From: an uncultured virus (IMG/VR IMGVR_UViG_3300031625_000002)
Taxonomy: Duplodnaviria; Heunggongvirae; Uroviricota; Caudoviricetes
DNA: 64,000 nucleotides
IMG/VR virus record: IMGVR_UViG_3300031625_000002
Span: 1 to 64,000 of that record
Reading direction: 5' to 3' (one strand)
Made by a program: the position numbers and the translations under genes. The notes beneath the pieces are model-generated. The model was not told the origin of the DNA. It saw only the letters and a list, made by a program, of their open reading frames with translations, and did no database searches. This document shows positions 1 through 61,613 of this stretch, in pieces; position 1 is the stretch's first letter, and each line of letters begins with the position of its first letter.

Positions 1-639
1 GACCAGTTTTAATAATAGGAGATTATAAAATGAATAAAATAGATGATATAGCGAATGATATTATTGCAGGAAGTGAATTGCCAAATTTAATTGAGTTAGT
101 TCCTGAGAATTTTGTTCTTCTTGGAGAGATTAAAATGGCAATCATGAAAGCTGTTAAGATTGGGTTGAATATGGAAATAGAATTGCAAAAAGAATTTATT
201 CTTAGTGGCAATAAGACTTAAGGAGAAATAATAATGTTAGAAATATCTATTGGTTTGGTAGTTGTAATAGTCGCATCATGTTCTTGGCTCGTATGGTTTA
301 TGGCAAAGAACGTATGGGGATAAGACTTAAGGAGATACAATGAAAGGGTTGCATTATGATGATGTTGGAAATCGTAAGTTAATTGAAACTTTGGTTACTG
401 TTTTACTTCAAGATGGATTGAAGGGAGAAGATATGATTGGGGTTTTAACTAAGAATGGAGCGTTTAAAGTATTGAATGGAGATCAATTATGTGCGGTTGC
501 AGAAGCAATGGAAGAAGTTTATAAGGATATGTTGTTGAAATAAATTGGTTGTATTATGCATAGTATGTCCACGTTTCGTGGACTTACTGTGTATTATCGG
601 AGTGTAGGAAAGTCTGGTCAGCGATACCAATTTATAAGA

Positions 640-7074: not shown

Positions 7075-7187
7075 TACAACTCGTTTAGTTAGCTACTGAC
7101 GGGGAATATCGGACACCAGCCGGGTGCCCAATGCATTGATGAAGTTCGCGACGACGGAGAGCGCGGCAGGGCGTAGCCGAGGCGCTG
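7062..7187 (+). ncRNA. unidentified GC-rich structured RNA
   Basis: CAGCGCC/GGCGCTG and GCTAC/GTAGC pairings, internal hairpin GGACACC...GGTGCCC. Confidence 0.45.
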
Positions 7188-7419
7188 TCTAATTTAACTA
7201 AGGTTCATAGAGAAGAGAAACACTGATGCATACACAATTCATAAACGATGGTTCGACGGCGTTCCCAATAAATGGTAGATTTTTTTAACCTATTCTGATC
7301 AGCATAGTAATGTTGGCGTTGAATGGAATCTATGGGGAAACTCATGCGGTATAGAATTATCTATAAATGATGAGGGGGGTGGACATTTTATGTGCCCTTG
7401 CCACCTATTTCATTGTGGT

Positions 7420-12640: not shown

Positions 12641-12721
12641 AATTCCATGGATGGACTTGAAATTCGAGTTTGATGTGATATGTTACCCGATAATATCACT
12701 TAAATTTTATGGAGTAATGCA

Positions 12722-15291: not shown

Positions 15292-15900
15292 ATGGCCGAT
15301 CTTAATAAAGTAAAACAACTCCGTCAAGAAACTGGAGTTGGGATTGTTGCCTGCAAAGAGGCATTAGAAAAAGCTCACGACGATCTTAATGAAGCGAAGA
15401 TTGTTCTTCGTAAGGGTAGTGGTGAGGTCGCTGAAAACTTATCTAACAGGAATGCAACTGAGGGTATTATTGTCACATACACTCACCACAACTCAAAGGT
15501 GGGATCAATTGTTGAAATTCACTGTGAAACGGATTTTGGCGCGGCTACGCTCAAAGACTTTGGTCATGAGGTCGCCATGCAAGTCGCCGCCTCAAACCCT
15601 GAGTTTATAAGTTTCGAAGATGTTTCAGAGGGAAGGATTGCTCAAGAAAGAGCGTATTTCATTTCTCAGTCCATAAATAGCATTTGTCCGCCAGAGCTTG
15701 AGTACGATGGTGAAAGTGACGAGATTGTTAATAAAATGGTTGTCGGTAAGTTTAAAAAGTTCAGATTAGAACACTGTCTTCTTAATCAAAGAACAATCAA
15801 GGACTCCGGTGTTTCCGTAAGAGATCTTCTCAATGACCAAGTGCAACGGCTTGGGGAAAAGATCGAAATCGCTAAGTTTGCGAGGTTTCAGATCTCATAA
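15292..15900 (+). CDS. tsf: translation elongation factor Ts (short type)
   Basis: VKQLRQETGVG..CKEAL, EIHCETDF, AMQVAA, GEKIEIAKFARF. Confidence 0.93.
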   Translation: MADLNKVKQLRQETGVGIVACKEALEKAHDDLNEAKIVLRKGSGEVAENLSNRNATEGIIVTYTHHNSKVGSIVEIHCETDFGAATLKDFGHEVAMQVAASNPEFISFEDVSEGRIAQERAYFISQSINSICPPELEYDGESDEIVNKMVVGKFKKFRLEHCLLNQRTIKDSGVSVRDLLNDQVQRLGEKIEIAKFARFQIS

Positions 15901-29915: not shown

Positions 29916-30421
29916 CTTGCAATGATTGTAGGAATGAAATAAACGAACACCCCTTCCATATATTGAAATGTATAGTTGGGAATCTATTGGGGGATTTATT
30001 CTTGTGTCCCGGATGTTTTTTCATAAGAACCGCCGGTGAGGCAGAAATCATTGGATCTATGGGCGATGACATCATTGTATACAATGAGGGTATGAGCGCT
30101 ATCGCGAAAGAGTTTTACGAGGTGCCATGCCCGAATTGTAGCACCAGCCTTAATGATATTAACACTAACGGTCTCTTCGGGTGTGAAGAATGTTATGTTA
30201 ATTTTTGTGAAATGATAAACATTGCAGAAGCGAAGGGCTGTCAAAAGATTAAAAAAGACAAGCCCAAGAACATTGATAACAATTTTGAGGGCAACAAGGA
30301 TGAGGCCCGCAAAAGGGTCTTGAAACAACAGCTTAAGCAGGCTGAAGAAAAAGAAAATTATGAGAAGTGCGCCGAGATAAGAGACGAATTAGCAAAAATT
30401 GATCAAGAGGGAAAACAATGA
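29912..30421 (+). CDS. mcsA: McsA-like protein (CXXC x4 plus UVR domain)
   Basis: CNDC, CPGC, CPNC, GCEECY, LKQAEEKENYEKCAEIRDEL. Confidence 0.8.
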   Translation: MTCNDCRNEINEHPFHILKCIVGNLLGDLFLCPGCFFIRTAGEAEIIGSMGDDIIVYNEGMSAIAKEFYEVPCPNCSTSLNDINTNGLFGCEECYVNFCEMINIAEAKGCQKIKKDKPKNIDNNFEGNKDEARKRVLKQQLKQAEEKENYEKCAEIRDELAKIDQEGKQ

Positions 30422-31476
30422 TTAAGGGAATAAATGTTGATAAGCTTTTGAAGGGCGTCCCTATATGGTTGAGAAACGACTCAACTGTCAAGGAAAAATC
30501 CATAGTTCTACATAGAAATATTAAGGGGATAAAGTTCCCTCACATGGCTAGCGAGAAAGAACTCCAATCAGTTTGCGCCATGGTCGCAAAAAGAATGATG
30601 GGATTGGAAGAGTTCAATGCTTGGGAATTTGATTTGGTTTCGTCAATAAAGAAATTAAATCGGTATATTTTGTATGAGAACAAAGTCGCAGATGAGGCTA
30701 TCATACCAGTTGGAACTGATATGAATGAGCTTCCAATGGCGCTCTTTGTTAACGAAGACGGATCTCAGTCGGTATTCGTCAACTCACAAGACCATATTGA
30801 GGTGCGAGTCAAAAGCGACAAGTTGGGACTTCAAGAGTTGTTGGCGAGAGGTCACTCAATTCTTGAGAGCTTGGGATTCGATTATGCAAAGGTCGATCCA
30901 TTTGGTTATGTAACAGCAAGCCCGGCTTTGATGACCCTTGGCATGGAAGCGCAGATATTCACGCACATTCCTGGGATAATTATATCAGAAAGGAACGAAG
31001 ACTTGGAAAATTTGTTGGAAAACAATAAATTAGTCGCTTCAGGTTTTTTCGGGCACAATACTCATTTCACTTGCAACTTCTATACTTTTGCAAACCAGCA
31101 TATAGCAATGAGATCAGAAGAAGAGATTGCCAATACCTTAGTAGGCGTTTCGAAAAGAATTGAGGCTCTTGAAGAAGAGTGCAGGGAGGAATATGACATC
31201 GAAGATCTTAAGGACATAGTCGCTCGATCATGGGGAACATTGAATTATGCCAATAAGGTAGACTTAATGGAATCGATAGTCGGGCTCAGTCATTTACTTA
31301 TGGGCACGGAGTTAGGTCTTTTGAAAAACGTTTCAAAAGAAAAAACAAAACAAGCCTTGTCAGATGTCTTTCATTATAAAATATTAAAGCGGCATAAATG
31401 TCCACCAGACAATGTTGATTTTATTCGAGCGAAGGGGATCAAGAAAACCTTAAATGGAAAGAGGGAAGCGAATTGA
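30418..31476 (+). CDS. mcsB: McsB-like ATP:guanido phosphotransferase, catalytic motifs degenerate
   Basis: RNIKGIKFP, VNSQDH, FGYVTASP, HIPG, NQ, RSWGTL; coupled to mcsA-like gene. Confidence 0.8.
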   Translation: MIKGINVDKLLKGVPIWLRNDSTVKEKSIVLHRNIKGIKFPHMASEKELQSVCAMVAKRMMGLEEFNAWEFDLVSSIKKLNRYILYENKVADEAIIPVGTDMNELPMALFVNEDGSQSVFVNSQDHIEVRVKSDKLGLQELLARGHSILESLGFDYAKVDPFGYVTASPALMTLGMEAQIFTHIPGIIISERNEDLENLLENNKLVASGFFGHNTHFTCNFYTFANQHIAMRSEEEIANTLVGVSKRIEALEEECREEYDIEDLKDIVARSWGTLNYANKVDLMESIVGLSHLLMGTELGLLKNVSKEKTKQALSDVFHYKILKRHKCPPDNVDFIRAKGIKKTLNGKREAN

Positions 31477-45091: not shown

Positions 45092-46108
45092 TTATGATTC
45101 GGCTTTGACCTTTGCCGCATTATACAATCCTCTGGAAACAGAATATAATGGGTCTCTCGCTAATTCAATAGAGGCAACTGGAATCGGGAATTCTTCTTCG
45201 ATCTTTACCTTCATCACATCGATGAAACCACCAACCATTGAAGTCCCACCGGCCACAACAATCTTAATAGGATCTGATATATTGGGGAGGCTTTTTGGAT
45301 CGGTTGAAGAATACAACTCATTGAATTTGTCAACAATGTATTCAATCAATGATTCATAATAGATGGCAATAGCGTTCTCGACATTGTCCTTTCTATTCAT
45401 AAGATCCATCCCAGCTTCTTTTCGATGCTGAATGACGTTCATTGTTTCATTACATGCTATAGCCGCATTCTTATCAATGTAATCACCAGAACGGGCGATT
45501 GAGAAACTGAATATAGGCATGCCTAAGAAGGCGTAGCAGACATTTACCATTCCGGCACCGCATGATATTCCAATACCTGAAAAGCCTTCATCTTCCAATT
45601 CTGAATAAACAATAGCGAGGCCCTCATTCATTTTGTAAGTATTCTTGTATCCAACGTTACTTAAGACGTTCTTTACAGTGCTTGCATGATATGTGACATC
45701 AAAATCAGCGTCGATTGGATCGGCTGGGATTGAATAGTAAACGATATCGTCTTCATTCTCAGGTTCTCCAAGGACACCCTTAATCAATTGAGAAACCATG
45801 ACAGTGCTTTCGGGCTCAGCGGGATTGAGGACACCATTTGACATCGGTCGCAAACATTCTTTATGGAATAGGTTCGCAAATTTGAAAGCGTCATCGCCAA
45901 GGATGTAAATGGTTTCGCCAATCTTGACGAAATTAGCGCCAGATTTAATAAGCATGGATTCACCGAAATTCATTGCTGAACCGGCCATGAAGTTGCCTGG
46001 ATCGATCTTGAAGAATACGTCTTTTACTTTATGGTATTCAAACTGATCATCTTTCTTTTCTGAAGCAACAATATTACCTGTTCCAACATCTAAACCTACA
46101 AATCTCAT
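45092..46108 (-). CDS. actin-like ATPase, volactin-like
   Basis: GLDVGTGN, PADPID, NEGLAIVYSEL, GISCGAGMVN, VAGGTS. Confidence 0.85.
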   Translation of the reverse strand: MRFVGLDVGTGNIVASEKKDDQFEYHKVKDVFFKIDPGNFMAGSAMNFGESMLIKSGANFVKIGETIYILGDDAFKFANLFHKECLRPMSNGVLNPAEPESTVMVSQLIKGVLGEPENEDDIVYYSIPADPIDADFDVTYHASTVKNVLSNVGYKNTYKMNEGLAIVYSELEDEGFSGIGISCGAGMVNVCYAFLGMPIFSFSIARSGDYIDKNAAIACNETMNVIQHRKEAGMDLMNRKDNVENAIAIYYESLIEYIVDKFNELYSSTDPKSLPNISDPIKIVVAGGTSMVGGFIDVMKVKIEEEFPIPVASIELARDPLYSVSRGLYNAAKVKAES

Positions 46109-46415: not shown

Positions 46416-47822
46416 TTATGACTCCAGTTTATCTATATAATTACTTTTTTATATTAATTTAGTCCTGCTTTATATTGTACATCAAAAATTGAAAATGGGC
46501 TTGAATTATGGAGAAATAACGGTATAATATAACATGTTCAGACTCTCATTTTGGTAGAGGGTCATTATTTGTATTATTAAGAATAACGGAGAACAAGCAA
46601 ATGACAAATAGTATTTGTTGTGAAGAGATGAGCGAGCTTTTGAAAGGACTAACCAACGCAGAGAGGAAAGGCGTCAAGGCTCTCTTAACAGATGGTGGGT
46701 CAATTGATGAGATGGTTATTGAGGGTGATGGTTTCATTCCCAATGTCATTTTCAGATTTTGCCCTTTCTGCGGACACGAAGTGAGTGAGAAAGCAGACGT
46801 TACTAAATCCAGTCTCCAATTGGATTTGGAAAAGATCGTTGGCGAATCAATCGACGAATCAACCCCCGATTTCAAACGTGCGGCTCTTGCAGAAGACAAG
46901 GTTAGTCGTATTGGCTCCCTCATTAGTAGGGCAGCGGCAAAAGGGGCTTTCAAGAAATAGAGGAACAAAACACAATGGCAAAGAGTAGATTACAGTATAA
47001 ATTACGCTATTACTTTAGAAATTTTATGCATCTCGTTGGGGTTTGCCCAGAATGTAGATCGAGAGTTAATTATGCACGGGGCGGATATACTGTGTGCCCA
47101 TCATGTGGAGCAAGATAATATGATACAATTTCTATCAATAAATTTAATGGGATGGAAGGACATTATTCCCTTAAGAGACGTTTCTTTTAGGGTGCTAAGA
47201 TATAAAAAAACTTCAATAATGAAAGTTTTTGTTGGAAATCATTTGGGACCAGAAAAAAGGTTCATCACACTAAAGTTTGACACGAAAAGCGGCGCAGATG
47301 AATCCATGGATCAAATAGGTGGAGCCATAAATCAGAATAAAGTTTTTGTGGAAGTGTCTGGCACTTATGAACTATGCTACGGAGCCAAATGAAGAATCGA
47401 GTTCTCCCAAGCGAAGAGTGCAAAGATGGGTATTTGTATCAAATCATTGCCAGGAACGCATACGCTGGCGTTTGGGTCGCTGAGAAAAGGCTATTTATAA
47501 TAAGGCGAGTCAAGTCCAAAAGCGTATACTTGTGTCAAGAATTGCATTGGGACTCTCATGATCGTCATGGGACGGCTCAACCAATTAGAGAGATTTGCAA
47601 AGCCCCAGACCTCGAAGGTCAAGAATTGATTGACTTTTTGAAAGAGACAGAAGATGATATTTGGGAAAATCACGATGCTCCATTCTGGACCCATGAAGGC
47701 ACTGACGAATCCAGAGAGAAATGGGGATATACTGTACAAAACTGGGAAAAACAGTTTGACAAACGCGATAGATAGTCTATGTTGTTAGAATAGTCAAAAA
47801 CACCGAACCCAAGATAAGTACT

Positions 47823-52106: not shown

Positions 52107-53144
52107 GTGAAAAGAATGATAAAATTCACAGGCATTGGCGCGTTTAGAAACGTCATTAAAGCTGTTTGCCATCGTTCCGCCTATATTGGTATGGACGATC
52201 AAGGCGAGCCTATTTATGACGGGACCAGACCAAAGCCAACGATCACATTCAATGGTGCTGTTAAGCTTCATGGAACTAACGCTGGTGTTTCTTATGAGCA
52301 TGCGACCGGAGAATTTTGGGCGCAATCAAGGAAAAATACCATCACTCCAGAGAAAGACAATGCGGGCTTTTCCTTCTTTGTCGAATCTCACAAGGATGTC
52401 TTTCTTGAAATGTTCAAGAGCCTCCCATGTGACGGAATAACAACCATTTATGGAGAGTGGTGCGGCAAGGGTGTTCAAAGCACGGTTGCCATTACTGAAC
52501 TTGATAAATTCTTCGTGATCATTGGTGTTAAAGAGAGTCCTCTTGAGCCAAGCGAAGATGAAGTTGCGATCTGGCTCCCTGATGATAAAACACAGCCGTT
52601 GTCTTCAAATGATGATAGGGTCTTCAACATTCTTGACTTTCCTACGTTCTCAATTGATATAGATTTCAAGAACCCTGAACTCTCAACGAACAGGATGGTT
52701 GAAATCACAGCAGCTGTCGAGGCAGAGTGTCCAGTTGCTAAGCAGCTTGGTGTTTCTGGAATTGGAGAAGGTGTTGTTTGGAAGTCTGACGTTAATGGAG
52801 AGAGATATATCTTCAAGGTTAAAGGCGACGAACACGCTGGCAAGTCCAAGGTCAAGACGCTTAAGCCTGTTGACAATGAAAGGCTTCAAAGGATTAACGA
52901 CATTGCTGAGCAAGTAACTCCAGTGTGGAGACTCGAACAGGCTATTCAAGAGACCTTTGACACCAATAATGGTGGCGATATCGACAGAAAAGGTCTTGGA
53001 GATTTCCTCAGATGGGTTGTCAAAGACGTGCTCAAAGAAGAGATCGATGTTATTAGCGATGCTGGTTTCGAACCAAAAGACGTTAATAAGAAGATTTCTG
53101 AAGTTTGTAGAACTTGGTTCTTCGAAAGGGAAAGCCAGGTTTAA
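52107..53144 (+). CDS. RNA ligase, Rnl2 family
   Basis: KLHGTN, YGEWCG, GEGVVW, FKVKG. Confidence 0.88.
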   Translation: MKRMIKFTGIGAFRNVIKAVCHRSAYIGMDDQGEPIYDGTRPKPTITFNGAVKLHGTNAGVSYEHATGEFWAQSRKNTITPEKDNAGFSFFVESHKDVFLEMFKSLPCDGITTIYGEWCGKGVQSTVAITELDKFFVIIGVKESPLEPSEDEVAIWLPDDKTQPLSSNDDRVFNILDFPTFSIDIDFKNPELSTNRMVEITAAVEAECPVAKQLGVSGIGEGVVWKSDVNGERYIFKVKGDEHAGKSKVKTLKPVDNERLQRINDIAEQVTPVWRLEQAIQETFDTNNGGDIDRKGLGDFLRWVVKDVLKEEIDVISDAGFEPKDVNKKISEVCRTWFFERESQV

Positions 53145-54508: not shown

Positions 54509-55624
54509 CCTTTTAATCTTAACAGAGAAGAGCGATGAATAACGAATATAAGAAAAAAGATTTTGAACACATGGCCAACAAACGGCGCAATGCCTTGAGT
54601 GTTATTGCAGACAAACTCGGCAAAGAACATACCATTACCAAAATGATGGGTGGTATGGCTTGGGGGCGAAATAATCCAGAGCCACATCCTGGATATGGGG
54701 CAAAGGACGCCATAAGAGGAATGGGGTATCTTGATGGTTCATTTCATATCTTGAATATTTGGGCGCGTGACAATGATCGCACGGCACAAAAAATCATGCT
54801 CGCTATTTACCCTATGAAATGGGAGTCTGCGAAATGAGCGTCAAAGATTTAGTATATCACAAATTTAATAAGCGGTTCCCAAAAAAATTGTTAGAAGTTA
54901 AGTATGTGGACCTCACTCTTACAAAATCTTTTGGAAGAGGCAACGCAAGACATACCGACTCGCGCAGGAGTGGGACTTGGAAAGAAACACATGGTTGGAA
55001 ATATAGGTTACCATACAATGTAGAGTCAGTTTCGGAGAAGTGGTATATCAAAAGATATATTTCCAGGAAGGTTCTTGGATTTGAATTCGTTTACAAGGAA
55101 GCGGTTGCCGAAGTCCATTTTGAAGAAATAAACAATCACGCTTGTTTTGGTGATACTTGGCCGCAAAGAGTTTGGGACGTTTGGGAAAAACATAATTTGG
55201 TAAATCAACCAACTGGAGATACTAAATGAAAAATCTTGATAAAATATTCTCGGAGGAAGATATCACTCTTCTCATTGAATATGCAGATGGGAGAAAGCAT
55301 GATAATTTTGAATACGAAATAGAGACTTTTGATCATGAAAATATAGGTAGGACTATGCTTCACATGAAAAACGGTCTTTGTGAACAGAGGCTTATCGCTC
55401 GTTTTCACTATCCTAAAAACGAGGGTTCTGATGATGGTTATGGGTATCCAGAAATGATGTTGGTAATAGGTAATGATGGCGATGTTTCCTTTCAAAATTT
55501 GGGGAACTGTCGTTTCCGTCTCCACGAACCTCTCAAGGCTTATGAATTGATGTTGAGACGATTAAGACCAGAACTTTTTGAATAGGACTTGACACAGGGT
55601 AAAGACTGTGTTATGTTGTATCAT

Positions 55625-56450
55625 GTTAGAGACAATTGAATATCGAAAGTTTGATGGCGTGGAGACAGGATTATGGGTAACCGTAGAATTGATGTTAACG
55701 TAGCGCCAGCAGTGGAGTGGAGACGTACCACTATGGAGTGGAATTCATAGAAGCTGTGAGGGACACATAATAAGACTTTTAAAGAGGCTTGAGGATTAGG
55801 GCGTAACCCACTCAAGTAACTATGTAGCCCTCTCGTTTTGCCGGTCAGAAGCGATAGTGTAGACCGGTGAAAGCTGGCATTTATGCCTAAATAAATAGGG
55901 AGACCGTCTACCCGAATAAAGTCGGCACTCAGTTCCCCAGAGTTAATGGGGACGGGATTTTGGAAGCCTCCCCAGATTGGCTCTACGTTTTGCATTGTTC
56001 GGAAATTCAATGTCGTAGCTGCGCACTACGTTAGGTGGCTCCAATGCGCAATTTTTATTTTGATGCTGTGAACGTAATTAATGCGAACAAGGGAGTTGGT
56101 GTCAGGGAGCGAGGGTAACGGAATGAGTACCGGTGAACCTAGCGGATGGGGATACTTGATCAGCATCTTTGATTAACCGGATGGCGCTATCCTTAAAGTG
56201 TCGGAAAACACTATCCTTAAGTGTGGGCAGAATATTCTTTAGGCCCTAAACTAAAAGATTATCGACATCGGATACAGATGGGGCCTGGGGCGGCATTGAG
56301 GCTTCCTTGATAATACATATATCAAGTAAATAAAATGTGTCGTCATGGCGTATCGCGTTAGGATAGTTTCCATACGCCTTAATTTTAGGATCTAAAGCGC
56401 CAGCAAATGTCCACCTCCATACGGGGGGTGGACAGCGCTGGTGAGGAAAT
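55625..56450 (+). ncRNA. large unidentified structured RNA region (one or several RNAs)
   Basis: Promoter at 55589, no credible ORF, many nested helices, raised GC, terminal hairpin 56397-56445. Confidence 0.6.
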
Positions 56451-56485
56451 TTTGTGAAAGTTTTGAAATTTTTTCTCAAAGCGGC

Positions 56486-56513
56486 TTGCAAAACGGAAAA
56501 GTCACGGTATAAT
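56486..56513 (+). promoter_or_regulatory. sigma70-like promoter for the GOLLD-like RNA
   Basis: TTGCAA-N16-TATAAT. Confidence 0.75.
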
Positions 56514-56520
56514 AAGAAGC

Positions 56521-57458
56521 ATGTTGGAAGTGGTTAACGCCGCATCTAACAGAAAGTAAAAACTGAATATTTAATTTAAGGGCAGTATGATGTCCTCCTG
56601 TTCCCTTCGGGTAACAGGTTAAGATAAGCCATGGAAACATGGTGAAATGGGGGACCCGCTACGGGCCTCGCCAAACTCTTCGGAGAGTGGTCAGTTATGC
56701 AAACCAAGCTTCTGTGAATTTCCCTCTTGGGGAGTTATACTTGAAGGTGGAGATTAAATGAATGTGGTGGCCAACGGTGGCTATGTTCTACTAACGTTAG
56801 CGACGAGAACTTATCTTATGCCAAACATCGAAAGTTAAGAAGCAAAGGGTAGTTGTGTTGTCTGAGTTTGCAGACAAAGGCTTCACAGCAGATTGTTGGG
56901 TAACAGGAAACCATTTAACAATGGGGGACCTGAAGTCCTGTAAATCCGTCTGGTAGCCCGCAAGGCCAAAGATATGAGGTGTGTGGCATTCTACTTCTCA
57001 AAAGGAAGCGGAACCATCGAGAGCGCACATCTTGGTAGATTTATCTGTAGCTCAATAGCAGAGCTATTCCCTCATACGGAATCGGTTTTGGTGCAACTCC
57101 AAACGGATATTTTTTAACGAAAATAAAAAAACGCAAAGACGCTCTCGGTAGTAGGTGAAAATGGCCTAATTCCAAATCCTTCGGGTAATTTGGAGACGTG
57201 AAGCTCGCAAGGCAGATCGTTTTAGGACAAGTTAAAATTTAGTGGATTAGCGTTCACGAACTGTTCATAAGGCAGGAATGGAAACGAGTTCTGATTAGCT
57301 TACTATGACGGCGCAGTCGCAGGCGCTTAATAAAATTGCGGTCATGATCGATGTCTGGTGTCCAGCTTGCTGGCCCAGAAGGAAATTAGGGCAAGGCACG
57401 TCGCAAGCGTACTGTAATCCTGAAGAGTCGATTATTGAAGGTGTATTTCTCAACCTTT
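56521..57458 (+). ncRNA. GOLLD-like giant ornate RNA
   Basis: ~940 nt non-coding between promoter and terminator; many UUCG/GCAA/GAAA hairpins; GAGGTGTGTGGCATT..CTCAAAAGG..GCACATCTT; 3' AAGGTGTATTTCTCAACCTT; embedded tRNA. Confidence 0.75.
57041..57111 (+). tRNA. tRNA(CAT) embedded in the GOLLD-like RNA, no encoded CCA
   Basis: TAGCTCAATAGCAGAGC D arm, ATTCC-CTCATAC-GGAAT, TTTGG-TGCAACT-CCAAA. Confidence 0.75.
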
Positions 57459-57467
57459 TAATTTTTT

Positions 57468-57501
57468 GTCAGGTGACTTCGGTCGTCTGGCATTTTTTTT
57501 T
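57468..57501 (+). terminator. intrinsic terminator
   Basis: GTCAGGTGAC-TTCG-GTCGTCTGGC followed by A and T9. Confidence 0.85.
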
Positions 57502-57610: not shown

Positions 57611-58276
57611 TTAATCGTTCCAATAATCTTTCTCGTCATCGTCGTTATCCTCAAAGGCGTGAGGGCTTACTTCCCCATCCCATTCATAATCGATATTGAA
57701 ATCTTCTTGAAGCATTTCAAAGTTGTTCAAATCATTATCTATAAGTGAATGTCCTTGACCGTGTCCAAAGACAACCTCTTGGACTCTACCTTTTGGCATT
57801 TCAACGCCAAAATATTCAATGCCATTTGGAATTACTCCATAAACTGGTTGGTCATTTGTTAAGTGTGAGGGAGTTATATCTATAACCTTTCCATTTAATG
57901 AATTCCACCCGTGATTCCTGAAAAATGTTCCGGCATATCCTTCAACATATTTGAAGTCATTGTCATGTAACATTAATAATTGAGAAGAGTAGAAACACTC
58001 TTTGACTTCCCCGCGTTTAAAAATACTATAAAGGCTTTCAATTTTTTCCTGTTCTTCAGGGGTCAATTCAGCAGACTCATACAGTTTGCCATGGGTCAAA
58101 TAGAAATATGGCATCGTAGGATAATGAAAATCGCTTGTTTGAGAATTCATTCCTACTTGCATAATGTGTTGCATAGCCAGAGCAGTCATAATCTGGCTGT
58201 GTGAAAACTGATTTTTCCAGGCCAATAATTCAGGCGTTATGTTCTCGATCCAATTTGATTTTTTGTACCAATTCAT
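57611..58276 (-). CDS. hypothetical protein with MNWYKK tag
   Basis: ATG after GGAG; CF..S...YVEGY...HGWN (transglutaminase-like pattern). Confidence 0.7.
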   Translation of the reverse strand: MNWYKKSNWIENITPELLAWKNQFSHSQIMTALAMQHIMQVGMNSQTSDFHYPTMPYFYLTHGKLYESAELTPEEQEKIESLYSIFKRGEVKECFYSSQLLMLHDNDFKYVEGYAGTFFRNHGWNSLNGKVIDITPSHLTNDQPVYGVIPNGIEYFGVEMPKGRVQEVVFGHGQGHSLIDNDLNNFEMLQEDFNIDYEWDGEVSPHAFEDNDDDEKDYWND

Positions 58277-58389
58277 AGGGTCTCCAATTCCACTTATTAT
58301 TCTTAACATACACAGAAAAACCCTTCCGGCAAAGCTTACTATATGGTCATGTGGCAGTATAGTATTACATGTAACAGGAGTAATGTCTT

Positions 58390-58749
58390 ATGGGAATTGA
58401 ATATAAGAGGTATTTACTCTTTGACCATCGTGCTGTAAAGTACTTAAACGAAATACTTTCTAAAACAGAGGCTAATATCGTAATAAGTTCGTCTTGGAGA
58501 AAAATCCATACTTTAGATGAAATTAGAGAGCAATTTAAGTCTCAGGGTATAATTGATGTCGATAGAGTCGTCAGTATGACAGGTGGGTCAAAAGACGGGA
58601 TAAGAGGCGGAGAGATTCAAACCTGGATTGACAATAACCCATGTGGTAATTTTGTAATAATAGATGATGACTCAGACATGATTCATCTCATGGACCATCT
58701 CGTTTTAACAAGAAACGCGACCGGCTTATCTTATCGAAACAAACTTTAA
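58390..58749 (+). CDS. HAD-domain protein (RNA-repair-associated type), N-terminal motif missing
   Basis: IVISSSWR, RGGEI, IIDDD. Confidence 0.7.
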   Translation: MGIEYKRYLLFDHRAVKYLNEILSKTEANIVISSSWRKIHTLDEIREQFKSQGIIDVDRVVSMTGGSKDGIRGGEIQTWIDNNPCGNFVIIDDDSDMIHLMDHLVLTRNATGLSYRNKL

Positions 58750-59558: not shown

Positions 59559-61613
59559 ATGAAGCACTTCATTTTTTTGAGAAACAGTCTTGTACAATTC
59601 CCGGCCCAAGCCAAGGATGACCAAGCGTCAAGAAATATCGTCGGAACGATTTGTTCCAATTTGCTTTATTATGGGTATATATTCTCAACAGAAGCCTTGC
59701 GTGAATTCAACAAGTTAAGCGATGAAAACGTCATTGCGTGGTGGGAGACCGTCGAGCCTGCATTTAAGGAAATCACTGGTGAGTCCAAGAATATGGGTGA
59801 TCATGTTGTCTATAAGAACTTTCCAAAGGAAGTACTTGATAAGTCATTGGCCGAGTATTGGATTTGCCAAATCTTTATGTACCTTGGCGTTCCAAATGAA
59901 TTTTTCACGACCGAAGAGGTCGAAAGAGACCAGATGTTTGAAAGTATTTCTCTTAAGACACTTCAAGTCGCAAGAGCAAATAAGGAGCAGGACATCTGTC
60001 ATGAGCTTTGTTTGACTCCGGCCAGATGGACTGATGAGCAATCAATGTTTGTTGAACATCTTATTATCAATGAGAAGTGCTATTTTAATTTGTCAAAAAT
60101 CCCCTTCAAGGAAAACATGATCCAAGTCGCAGTCTTGGCCATGAATAATGGTTTGGCGGCGAGTGTCAATTCAGCCACGGATGTGTTGCGCCTTGCAATT
60201 GGATTGTCCGATGGTGACATAACCATGCGAACCAACACGCCATTTAGAAACTTTACGCGGAAGGAAAGACGTTTCTTGCTCACCTTGATTGAAAATCAGA
60301 ATGATTGTGAGGAAGACATCGCTATGGACAAGAATCGTTGGAAGAAGCTTTTAAACAGATTGCATCCAGGCGATTATAAGAATGCTTTCCCGAATGTGGT
60401 GAAGGCAAATAACAACTTGTACAACAACAACGTTGTCAGCTTCAATTCAAAGCTTGAGAAATATCTTGAGACTGAAGACGCATACGCTCTCGTTCTTCTT
60501 AAGAGCAGACCCGGTGTCTTTGCAAGAAGATTGTCTCACGCTATTTCAATATTTGGAAGCGCGGCCATCGACGCTTTCGCAGAAATTTGTCCAAAGCTCA
60601 CGGTTATTAAACTCCTTAAGGTGAAGAAGTTCTTTTCAACCTTGAAGGAAAGAAATCATCTTGTTTATCCGCCGAAGAGTAATTGGGCCAAGTTGCAGAT
60701 CGTTGAAAACTCAAAGGCGATACGTCACAATCCACAGGTCATAACTCTTATTGGGAAGATCGACGATGCTCTTAATGAGAAGATGAGTGGAATTTCTGTC
60801 AATCTTGATTCCAGAACGAGTCTCGTTAAAATCCAGGGCAACGACTCTGAATTAACGAACTATGGTCGTGGAACCGTGTTCCCGATTCCAGAGAATATTA
60901 ATTTCATCAGAAGCGCAAGCTATTGGGAATTACCTGACACTTTTAACAATTGGTACGACAATGGTTGGAACTTCTTTAACAAGGATTGGAAGGAAAAGGG
61001 CGCGTGTTGCTGGGCGAATATGACTTTCGCCAGAAAGGGATGCGCATTCTCTGGCGATCCAACCAACTCAAAGACTGCTGACGGAAAGGCGTGTCAAATG
61101 ATCGACTTGTACATTGACAAGTTGTTAGCTTTTGGAGTACGTTATGCTGTTTGGAATGTCTTGTGCTATTCTCATAAGAAGTTCAGCGAGGCCACTGAGG
61201 TCTTTGGTGCGCTTCAATGGGGTGAGGCTCCGCAAAAGGGTAAGCTCTTCGAGCCAAGCCGTTGCCAACTCTCATTTCCAATTACTGGTGAATGCTATAC
61301 CAAGTATATCGCATACATTGACTTGGAGAAGCGTGAACTTGTCTACATGGACGCTAACTTCAAGGCTGACGTTTCTTCCGCAAAGGAAAATGGTCGTATG
61401 CTTTCAGAAGTAATGCCAGCCTACATTGAATACTTGAATTCGTTGCCGAGCGTGTTCGATCTCTTCTCACATGCGAAGCAGGACGTGAATGGGACCGCTG
61501 TAGCCTATGACGATAGCAATATCGATATCAAGGGCACAAGTGCCTATGTATTCAATCCGACAAATGAGAACAACTCGTTCGAGCAGCTTGAAGTCGCCAA
61601 ATTTTTATCTTAA
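59559..61613 (+). CDS. MXAN_6230/SCO0854-like helical protein with TerD-like C-terminal domain
   Basis: YKNFP, ATDVLR, RPGVFARRL, SGDPT..ACQMIDL, VRYAV, FEP. Confidence 0.7.
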   Translation: MKHFIFLRNSLVQFPAQAKDDQASRNIVGTICSNLLYYGYIFSTEALREFNKLSDENVIAWWETVEPAFKEITGESKNMGDHVVYKNFPKEVLDKSLAEYWICQIFMYLGVPNEFFTTEEVERDQMFESISLKTLQVARANKEQDICHELCLTPARWTDEQSMFVEHLIINEKCYFNLSKIPFKENMIQVAVLAMNNGLAASVNSATDVLRLAIGLSDGDITMRTNTPFRNFTRKERRFLLTLIENQNDCEEDIAMDKNRWKKLLNRLHPGDYKNAFPNVVKANNNLYNNNVVSFNSKLEKYLETEDAYALVLLKSRPGVFARRLSHAISIFGSAAIDAFAEICPKLTVIKLLKVKKFFSTLKERNHLVYPPKSNWAKLQIVENSKAIRHNPQVITLIGKIDDALNEKMSGISVNLDSRTSLVKIQGNDSELTNYGRGTVFPIPENINFIRSASYWELPDTFNNWYDNGWNFFNKDWKEKGACCWANMTFARKGCAFSGDPTNSKTADGKACQMIDLYIDKLLAFGVRYAVWNVLCYSHKKFSEATEVFGALQWGEAPQKGKLFEPSRCQLSFPITGECYTKYIAYIDLEKRELVYMDANFKADVSSAKENGRMLSEVMPAYIEYLNSLPSVFDLFSHAKQDVNGTAVAYDDSNIDIKGTSAYVFNPTNENNSFEQLEVAKFLS

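Follow-up and report, generated by a model that had tools for sequence, protein, structure and literature searches.

What occupies the long stretch of DNA directly upstream of a GOLLD RNA gene in the uncultured virus of IMG/VR record IMGVR_UViG_3300031625_000002? The window analysed here, 64,000 nucleotides (nt) taken from this 73-kb record (G000), is a fragment of a jumbo phage, and a larger record of the same phage, G001, extends to 235 kb; positions are those of the window unless assigned to G001. The region in question, X, is the candidate non-coding stretch within 55589-56450 on the plus strand (Table 1), where a first-pass annotation had proposed a new large structured non-coding RNA. 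We demonstrate that X is non-coding, that promoter-like sites accompany it, that its neighbor is GOLLD and that it matches no catalogued RNA family. To this extent the proposal stands; a new large structured RNA is the likeliest explanation, and covariation is absent. On balance, and at little better than an even chance, we favor the reading that X is one functional, stable, folded non-coding RNA gene of ~720-820 nt, lies outside the catalogued families and forms a two-gene island with GOLLD. The locus is real and a new family is plausible, if unproven; as it stands, X is a candidate known from a single sequence.

Coding potential, promoters and layout of the locus

X and GOLLD are the two halves of the longest non-coding gap in the compact G001 genome (2026 nt, first among 43 gaps of at least 200 nt); the second-longest gap, of 1613 nt, contains open reading frames (ORFs), and the remaining gaps are far shorter or conceal ORFs. 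That X fills one half of this gap and GOLLD the other supports the favored reading. Within X, the longest stop-free sense frame spans 58 codons, and three-base periodicity is low (chi2 of 9.2, vs 40-64 in three genes of equal length, one neighboring ORF of 390 nt also giving 9.5). The 129-aa antisense ORF has a codon usage opposite to that of phage genes, scoring -0.165 per codon compared with +0.13 to +0.16 for five neighboring genes and +0.02 for a sixth, and its only match in protein databases is a 100% identical copy. These findings uphold the earlier claim that the region holds no credible ORF. The 25-codon sense ORF at 55673 is probably not translated, given the predicted pairing of its start codon, and neither Pfam nor PHROGs gave a match to the frame segment around it. 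A recoded ORF was dropped as a candidate; with TAA as the sole stop, the longest sense frame is 117 codons.

The lack of a coding or decayed-gene signal likewise favors a functional RNA and bears on the possibility that X has no function and that its orphan promoter is followed by what is left of an older gene or mobile element, or by an RNA gene in decay. Such a relic would be in keeping with conservation that was not found, with folding mostly within the range of genome windows, and with repeated 8-mers in excess of expectation (16 vs 5.7; 3/300 shuffles as high), as expected from local duplication. However, a scan of 14 of the 23 stop-free segments of at least 25 codons found no protein remnant (0 Pfam matches; best PHROGs E values 0.23 and 0.38), and a decayed gene was dropped, the single tblastn match (E 0.026) having no support at the DNA level. 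Moreover, G001 has neither a paralog of X nor a reverse transcriptase, its other gaps are short or ORF-bearing as described above, and the promoter and end hairpin of X are intact. We therefore consider a relic improbable.

The TTGACA promoter claimed previously was located as P1, which has an extended TG. Promoters of the same form are used elsewhere by the phage, at 47756, before the NAD synthetase gene, and at 12657; that P1 is the phage's own promoter type is a further point for a functional gene. GOLLD has a promoter of its own, P2, identical at 23/28 bases to one that precedes a tRNA-Pro gene by ~360 nt (G001 111036). A canonical intrinsic terminator ends the island, and none was called at the X 3' end or between X and P2, the hairpin at 56398-56443 not being listed.

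The uncalled terminator is in keeping with a single 1.9-kb transcript from P1, in which X would be a discarded leader or an extra 5' domain of GOLLD, as is the description of GOLLD 5' regions as variable and forming a separate domain (available portion of PMC12286853). Against this stand the promoter that GOLLD itself possesses, the full length that GOLLD already has, its 5' region resembling other GOLLD loci from ~56570 on, and a GOLLD profile of 49 other loci that is blind to X at E<=100 (nhmmer --max). This arrangement appears less probable again than a relic.

The word AAYTGAATA, a motif chosen after the fact, occurs in the leaders of both X and GOLLD (56561 in the latter) and matches the tail of a boxA-like site that precedes tRNA-Pro (G001 111325); it has 10 sites in the 235 kb, counting both strands. 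A full boxA in X was dropped as a candidate: judged by the B. subtilis consensus (available portion of PMC13753749), only the boxA tail is present and the core is absent, so antitermination is not claimed. The tRNA-Pro unit itself (G001 111036-111474; L138 11036-11474) consists of the promoter, a leader of ~250 nt containing a perfectly paired hairpin and a U tract, the boxA-like GATCTTTGAAA and the tRNA, and its tRNA-Pro start and leader are duplicated at window 553-620. Another repeat, AGCGCCAGCA, is an exact 10-nt direct repeat near both ends of X (55702-55711 and 56396-56405), its sole two sites in G001.

Table 1. Features in and around the RNA island (window positions)
Feature	Position	Strand	Remark
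RNA ligase	52107-53144		within 4 kb of the RNA island
Orphan 119-aa phage ORF	55226-55585	+	coding-like codon use; sole database match is itself; stop 3 nt ahead of the -35 box
Promoter P1, TTGACA-17-(TG)TATGTT, extended TG	55589-55617	+	predicted start ~55623-55625, from spacing
Antisense ORF, 129 aa	55621-56010	-	judged not a gene
Candidate large non-coding RNA X	55623-56443	+	putative primary transcript of ~820 nt
AAYTGAATA word	55634-55642	+	motif chosen after the fact
5' arm of predicted 11-bp end-joining helix	55656-55666	+	pair probability 0.75-0.78
25-codon sense ORF with Shine-Dalgarno-like GGAG/AGGA	55673-55750	+	AUG within predicted hairpin, p 0.97
Best-supported domain: multi-way junction closed by GCCAGC/GCUGGC	55705-55878	+	z -3.26
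GGAAGCCUC, perfect 9-bp complement of GAGGCUUCC (56298-56306)	55962-55970	+	possible long-range helix replacing the proposed pseudoknot
Two self-complementary UGCGCA copies (56020, 56045), then U-rich tract (56051-56061)	56014-56061	+	
Two adjacent predicted stem-loops, 3' half	56236-56345	+	z -2.45, 5/300 shuffles
3' arm of predicted end-joining helix	56366-56378	+	
Very stable GC hairpin	56398-56443	+	z -6.4; no U tract directly 3'
Promoter P2 of GOLLD, TTGCAA-16-TATAAT	56486-56513	+	
GOLLD RNA	56520-57456	+	Rfam 3' domain 56976-57456
tRNA-Met(CAU) within GOLLD linker	57041-57111	+	ARAGORN
Canonical intrinsic terminator ending the RNA island	57467-57500	+	
232-aa phage protein, convergent, without named family	57611-58309	-	
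HAD phosphatase, RNA-repair type	58390-58749		within 4 kb of the RNA island
TerD/SCO0854-like protein	59559-61613		within 4 kb of the RNA island

The neighbor was recognized as GOLLD through its 3' domain, which matches RF02032 with 148.1 bits (E 7e-41), just below the gathering score of 150. A pattern scan returned at least 120 GOLLD-pattern loci (123 loci were used for nhmmer), and the 3' domain occurs in 100 of the at least 120 pattern loci listed, two of which are this phage. Among the matches listed, a tRNA lies at most ~1.1 kb upstream of GOLLD at 35/43 distinct other loci, and a tRNA sits at the same position of the GOLLD linker in 36/43 distinct phage loci (L004-L083); an embedded tRNA thus looks like the rule among sampled jumbo-phage GOLLDs. 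The slot upstream of GOLLD is usually occupied by stable-RNA genes, namely tRNAs, and is here occupied by X, which supports an RNA gene. The dinucleotide composition of X is also near that of GOLLD, only 11-34 of ~1158 G001 sense windows being as close (1-3%, by boundary choice), and this too favors the reading. As a long, ORF-free phage unit with its own promoter and adjoining stable-RNA genes, X resembles in layout the large ornate RNAs of the GOLLD and ROOL kind.

This GOLLD is divergent: when its pattern region is compared with those at other loci, at best 61/105 bases agree. Its linker tRNA is Met(CAU), other inspected loci having mostly tRNA-Asn or tRNA-Lys, and it sits outside any tRNA array. 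At L055/L056, ~1.9 kb without a tRNA separates the GOLLD pattern from the nearest sense ORF; another non-coding RNA is possible there, dissimilar to X.

Known RNA families and searches for relatives of X

Rfam 15 gave no match in X at E<=10 (55610-56400), so the first-pass view of X as an RNA outside the known families holds. X is not a second GOLLD by the tests applied: RF02032 had 0 matches in X at E<=10, and the pairwise alignment of X with GOLLD scored at shuffle level (58/100). RNase P models (RF00010 and related) had 0 matches in G001, with the control found in 11/14. For tmRNA, ARAGORN called none, and RF00023 and related models, whose control worked, gave two sub-threshold matches of 17-18 nt, both outside X. 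Group I and II introns had no Rfam match in X, and no RVT_1 reverse transcriptase was found in G001. The earlier statement that RNase P, tmRNA and group II signatures are lacking is therefore borne out by model searches. No tRNA or small Rfam RNA was found inside X.

Several other identities were tried and dropped. A CsrB/RsmY-type sponge has in its favor a GGA count above the shuffled level (25 vs 19.2; 23/500 shuffles), but ANGGA is at the shuffled level (6 vs 5.4; 237/500) and no Rfam match was found. For an rRNA mimic, whole-region scores against 16S and 23S lie at shuffle level (68/100 and 53/100), with a resemblance to 23S domain I, chosen by eye, at 13/1000. A tandem array, and an antisense target or paralog in the phage, were tested and also rejected.

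A further family to consider is ROOL, of which X could be a highly diverged or circularly permuted member. A 25-nt stretch of X, 56127-56151, agrees with the ROOL 5' end of L. salivarius at 21/25 positions, a score reached by 1/564 genome windows; the ROOL-like word GGTGAAANYTGG at 55866 has its single G001 site in X, and AGTG[AG]A is also present. Moreover, ROOL is described as having just 10 highly conserved bases (available portion of PMC5737381). However, a filtered search with RF03087 found nothing in X (E<=10) or in G001, while the L. salivarius control scored 130 bits, and a search of 46 phage records found no ROOL. The words CAATA, TGAAG, TATAAC and AGTAGC, taken from the ROOL consensus, are absent from X. 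The 25-nt stretch has an nhmmer E of 0.1, is the best among ~nine targets and several scoring schemes and, by inspection, is unable to form the first stem-loop of ROOL. Because four words are missing, the first stem-loop cannot form and the stretch is the best of many comparisons, we treat the resemblance as probably due to chance. A permuted ROOL was tested and dropped, and membership of X in the ROOL family is very improbable.

The search for homologs was carried across phage, plasmid, viral and metagenome sets. The X and GOLLD locus recurs base-for-base identical in the 235-kb G001, a 79-kb record and one metagenome contig. With blastn, X had one 22-nt chance match among 50,697 phage records and one 28-nt match among 72,556 plasmids. 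nhmmer found no diverged homolog in the 123 loci, which include the at least 120 GOLLD-pattern loci. A DNA search of 50 whole records gave six matches at E<=0.1 (6/50), namely one from the same phage and five of 18-24 nt. Of two exact motif scans of IMG/VR, the first returned only self matches (2/2), the second two self matches and one chance match. Back-translated patterns of the antisense ORF, which cover the 5' half of X only, returned 2/280 candidates in metagenomes, both identical, identical sequences only among viral contigs, and 1/165 in genomes, without DNA similarity. Two single-sequence covariance models of X found no homolog in 1.19 Mb around other GOLLDs, and such a model detected only X itself in 53 whole records.

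The literature search gave no description of an RNA gene upstream of GOLLD in titles and the starts of abstracts; motif lists in supplements (e.g. of PMC5737381) and subscription journals could hold one. The available portion of the main text of bioRxiv 10.64898/2026.10.21.760802 leaves GOLLD, ROOL and phage unmentioned.

Predicted fold and ends of X

The region 55620-56450 folds at z -3.2 (0/20 shuffles as low), the reverse strand at -2.2. This value is largely due to the hairpin at the 3' end, for which 0/300 shuffles were as stable, and a scan with 150-nt windows restricts strong folding to 56300-56650. The GC hairpin claimed earlier is thus a strong one, though not a canonical terminator; it may serve as a 3'-end protector, a processing signal or an atypical terminator.

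The best-supported domain, 55705-55878, is a predicted multi-way junction with one arm in which GAGGG/CCCUC, ACAUA/UAUGU and GCUUGAG/CUCAAGU follow one another, together with an 11-bp CCGGUC/GACCGG hairpin. Only 1/300 shuffles match its z score; its borders were picked afterwards, and 7/119 random genome windows are equally low. The four helices nested in the first-pass annotation all exist (GCCAGC 55705/GCTGGC 55873, GAGGG 55758/CCCTC 55828, CTTGAG 55788/CTCAAG 55811 and CCGGTC 55841/GACCGG 55862), and the inner three have predicted pair probabilities of 0.86-0.99. The outer GCCAGC/GCTGGC helix appears when 55695-55882 is folded alone. One compact domain together with a very strong end hairpin is what would be expected of a folded RNA gene, and we count both in favor of this reading. 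The GGAAGCC/GGCTCC pseudoknot, in contrast, is unsupported: its pairing is imperfect, and the perfect 9-bp partner, GAGGCTTCC, sits at 56298-56306 instead. Forcing the resulting 55962/56306 helix costs ~4 kcal/mol, and such helices are at chance level (1 observed, 0.8 expected).

Perfect helices are modestly in excess over shuffles, with 63 vs 51 of at least 6 bp (5/200), 20 vs 12.8 of at least 7 bp (9/200) and 7 vs 3.1 of at least 8 bp (7/200), which adds to the case for X. A predicted 11-bp helix joins the ends and delimits a core of ~720 nt.

The alternative to a single RNA is that X comprises at least two smaller RNAs, one of ~430 nt on the 5' side that ends at 56020-56061 and one of ~380 nt on the 3' side, perhaps with a 25-aa peptide from 55673. 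The two UGCGCA copies form a stem in a fold of the 5' half by itself (p 0.96) and are followed by the U-rich tract, which by modeling is a possible linker or internal 3' end. The 5' half is also better folded than the 3' half, 56307-56336 weakly resembles a promoter, and the 25-codon ORF has its Shine-Dalgarno-like lead. However, the UGCGCA copies, which are predicted to take alternative hairpin or pseudoknot forms, have a stability not above shuffles (z -0.25), and no terminator was called there; the end-joining helix would bridge both halves; neither a tRNA nor a small Rfam RNA lies within X; and the AUG of the peptide is predicted to be paired. We regard a split into smaller RNAs as unlikely, about as much so as a relic.

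Several results weigh against a single folded RNA gene. Without the end hairpin, the z score of the X core is only -1.74 (1/30 shuffles), so the folding of the region is weaker than first claimed. The 5' half gives z -1.5 to -1.9 and the 3' half +0.2, and 3/12 coding control windows reach z -1.9 to -2.7. Forcing the first-pass nest of helices in the full-length fold costs ~20 kcal/mol, so its outer helix is unfavorable there. The excess of perfect helices is gone at 9 bp and above, and the true GOLLD lacks such an excess, which is therefore no marker of the large-phage-RNA class. Self-complementary hexamers, potential seeds of multimers, are present in X and not enriched (15 vs 13.2). Moreover, no search found a diverged homolog of X, only identical copies from the same phage or chance matches, and hence there is no covariation. 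With nhmmer, X had 0 matches at E<=5 in the surroundings of other GOLLDs (60 regions, 1.19 Mb), where a control with the GOLLD 3' domain gave 17 matches at E<1e-3; X is thus not a regular partner of GOLLD.

Two considerations lessen the force of these points. The true GOLLD 3' domain folds at z +1.66, so folding energy is a poor test for large phage RNAs. The misses in homolog searches are weak evidence because the same blastn likewise misses any phage relative of a real ROOL, because the collections searched contain no close relative of the phage, its flanking and core proteins matching only the same strain or distant sequences, and because the collection scans require exact words.

Under the favored reading of a single RNA gene, we infer the transcript, its ends, its fold and its function as follows. 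The island would run from P1 through X, the end hairpin and P2 to GOLLD with its tRNA-Met and the terminator. Host RNA polymerase would transcribe X from P1. The RNA is predicted to close through the helix 55656-66/56366-78 and to fold into two domains, a multi-junction one on the 5' side and another on the 3' side, with the U-rich stretch between them. Its 3' end would lie at the GC hairpin, through termination or trimming, and some transcription would continue into GOLLD. By analogy with GOLLD and ROOL, its likeliest function would be that of a protein-free scaffold, possibly assembling into multimers, although we give this step low odds.

Genome surroundings and relation to known large RNAs

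The gene set is that of a jumbo phage and includes a DnaE-type polymerase, helicases, tRNAs, NAD salvage, elongation factor Ts and RNA ligase. The RNA ligase, HAD phosphatase and TerD/SCO0854-like genes lie near the RNA island, proximity being the only observed tie to X. The nearby 684-aa protein was rejected as a Ro/TROVE partner, being TerD/SCO0854-like instead. Farther away, the window carries a volactin-family gene (actin-like, PF25216, E 2e-74; 45095-46108, minus strand), in a phage with bacterial-type promoters, as well as genes for the elongation factor Ts (15292-15897) and a McsB-like protein arginine kinase (30418-31473). The stretch 7080-7245 is GC-rich, has no long ORF or Rfam match and is possibly a small structured RNA; a search of 1.19 Mb from other phages found no match to it. 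The intervals 1585-1715 and 1860-1915 comprise tRNA-like relics uncalled by ARAGORN and a small hairpin-rich stretch after tRNA-Glu; the tmRNA model weakly matches a T-arm-like 18-mer near 1684.

Among known systems, X resembles ROOL (RF03087) in size class (ROOL averages 581 nt), in its phage location near stable-RNA genes, in having few sequence anchors, in ends that are predicted to pair and in a possible unstructured central linker. It differs in being longer, in giving no match to a model built with six multistem junctions plus three pseudoknots, in missing most of the conserved words, and in a structure that is predicted without covariation. With GOLLD (RF02032), its direct neighbor on the same strand, X shares a phage-borne setting, similar length, base composition and the leader word, whereas the Rfam model, the 49-sequence profile and pairwise alignment reveal no similarity. 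Furthermore, X has no embedded tRNA, and it was found in this phage only. A precedent for two long non-coding RNAs in one phage is found in the Kayvirus phage K, whose lnc001 and lnc002 lie beside stable-RNA genes, one with its own early promoter (available portion of PMC9241854), and this lends support to the favored reading. Unlike lnc001 and lnc002, which are supported by RNA-seq, X is a candidate predicted from sequence and, apart from the 22-nt chance match, has no blastn similarity among the phage records searched.

The bacterial or phage RNA classes that combine such length with an unknown function are few, and those solved by cryo-EM, namely GOLLD, ROOL and OLE, are RNA-only multimers. 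ROOL and GOLLD are described as RNA-only cages of 8 and 14 subunits, with the linker unresolved, and the commonness of cage formation among large natural RNAs is stated to be open (available portion of PMC12286853). By this analogy, X may tentatively be viewed as a scaffold RNA that is free of protein, abundant in the course of infection and possibly multimeric. It is more doubtful that X represents a new, unrelated class of ornate RNA of ~800 nt, distinct from GOLLD, ROOL and OLE, and that it is expressed in tandem with this GOLLD and its tRNA, either building a cage by itself or joining GOLLD in a two-RNA complex. If an unrelated RNA of ~800 nt does lie head-to-tail with GOLLD, the pair would be a test case for cage formation, and an interaction or co-expression of X with GOLLD, if true, would provide a handle on the function of GOLLD.

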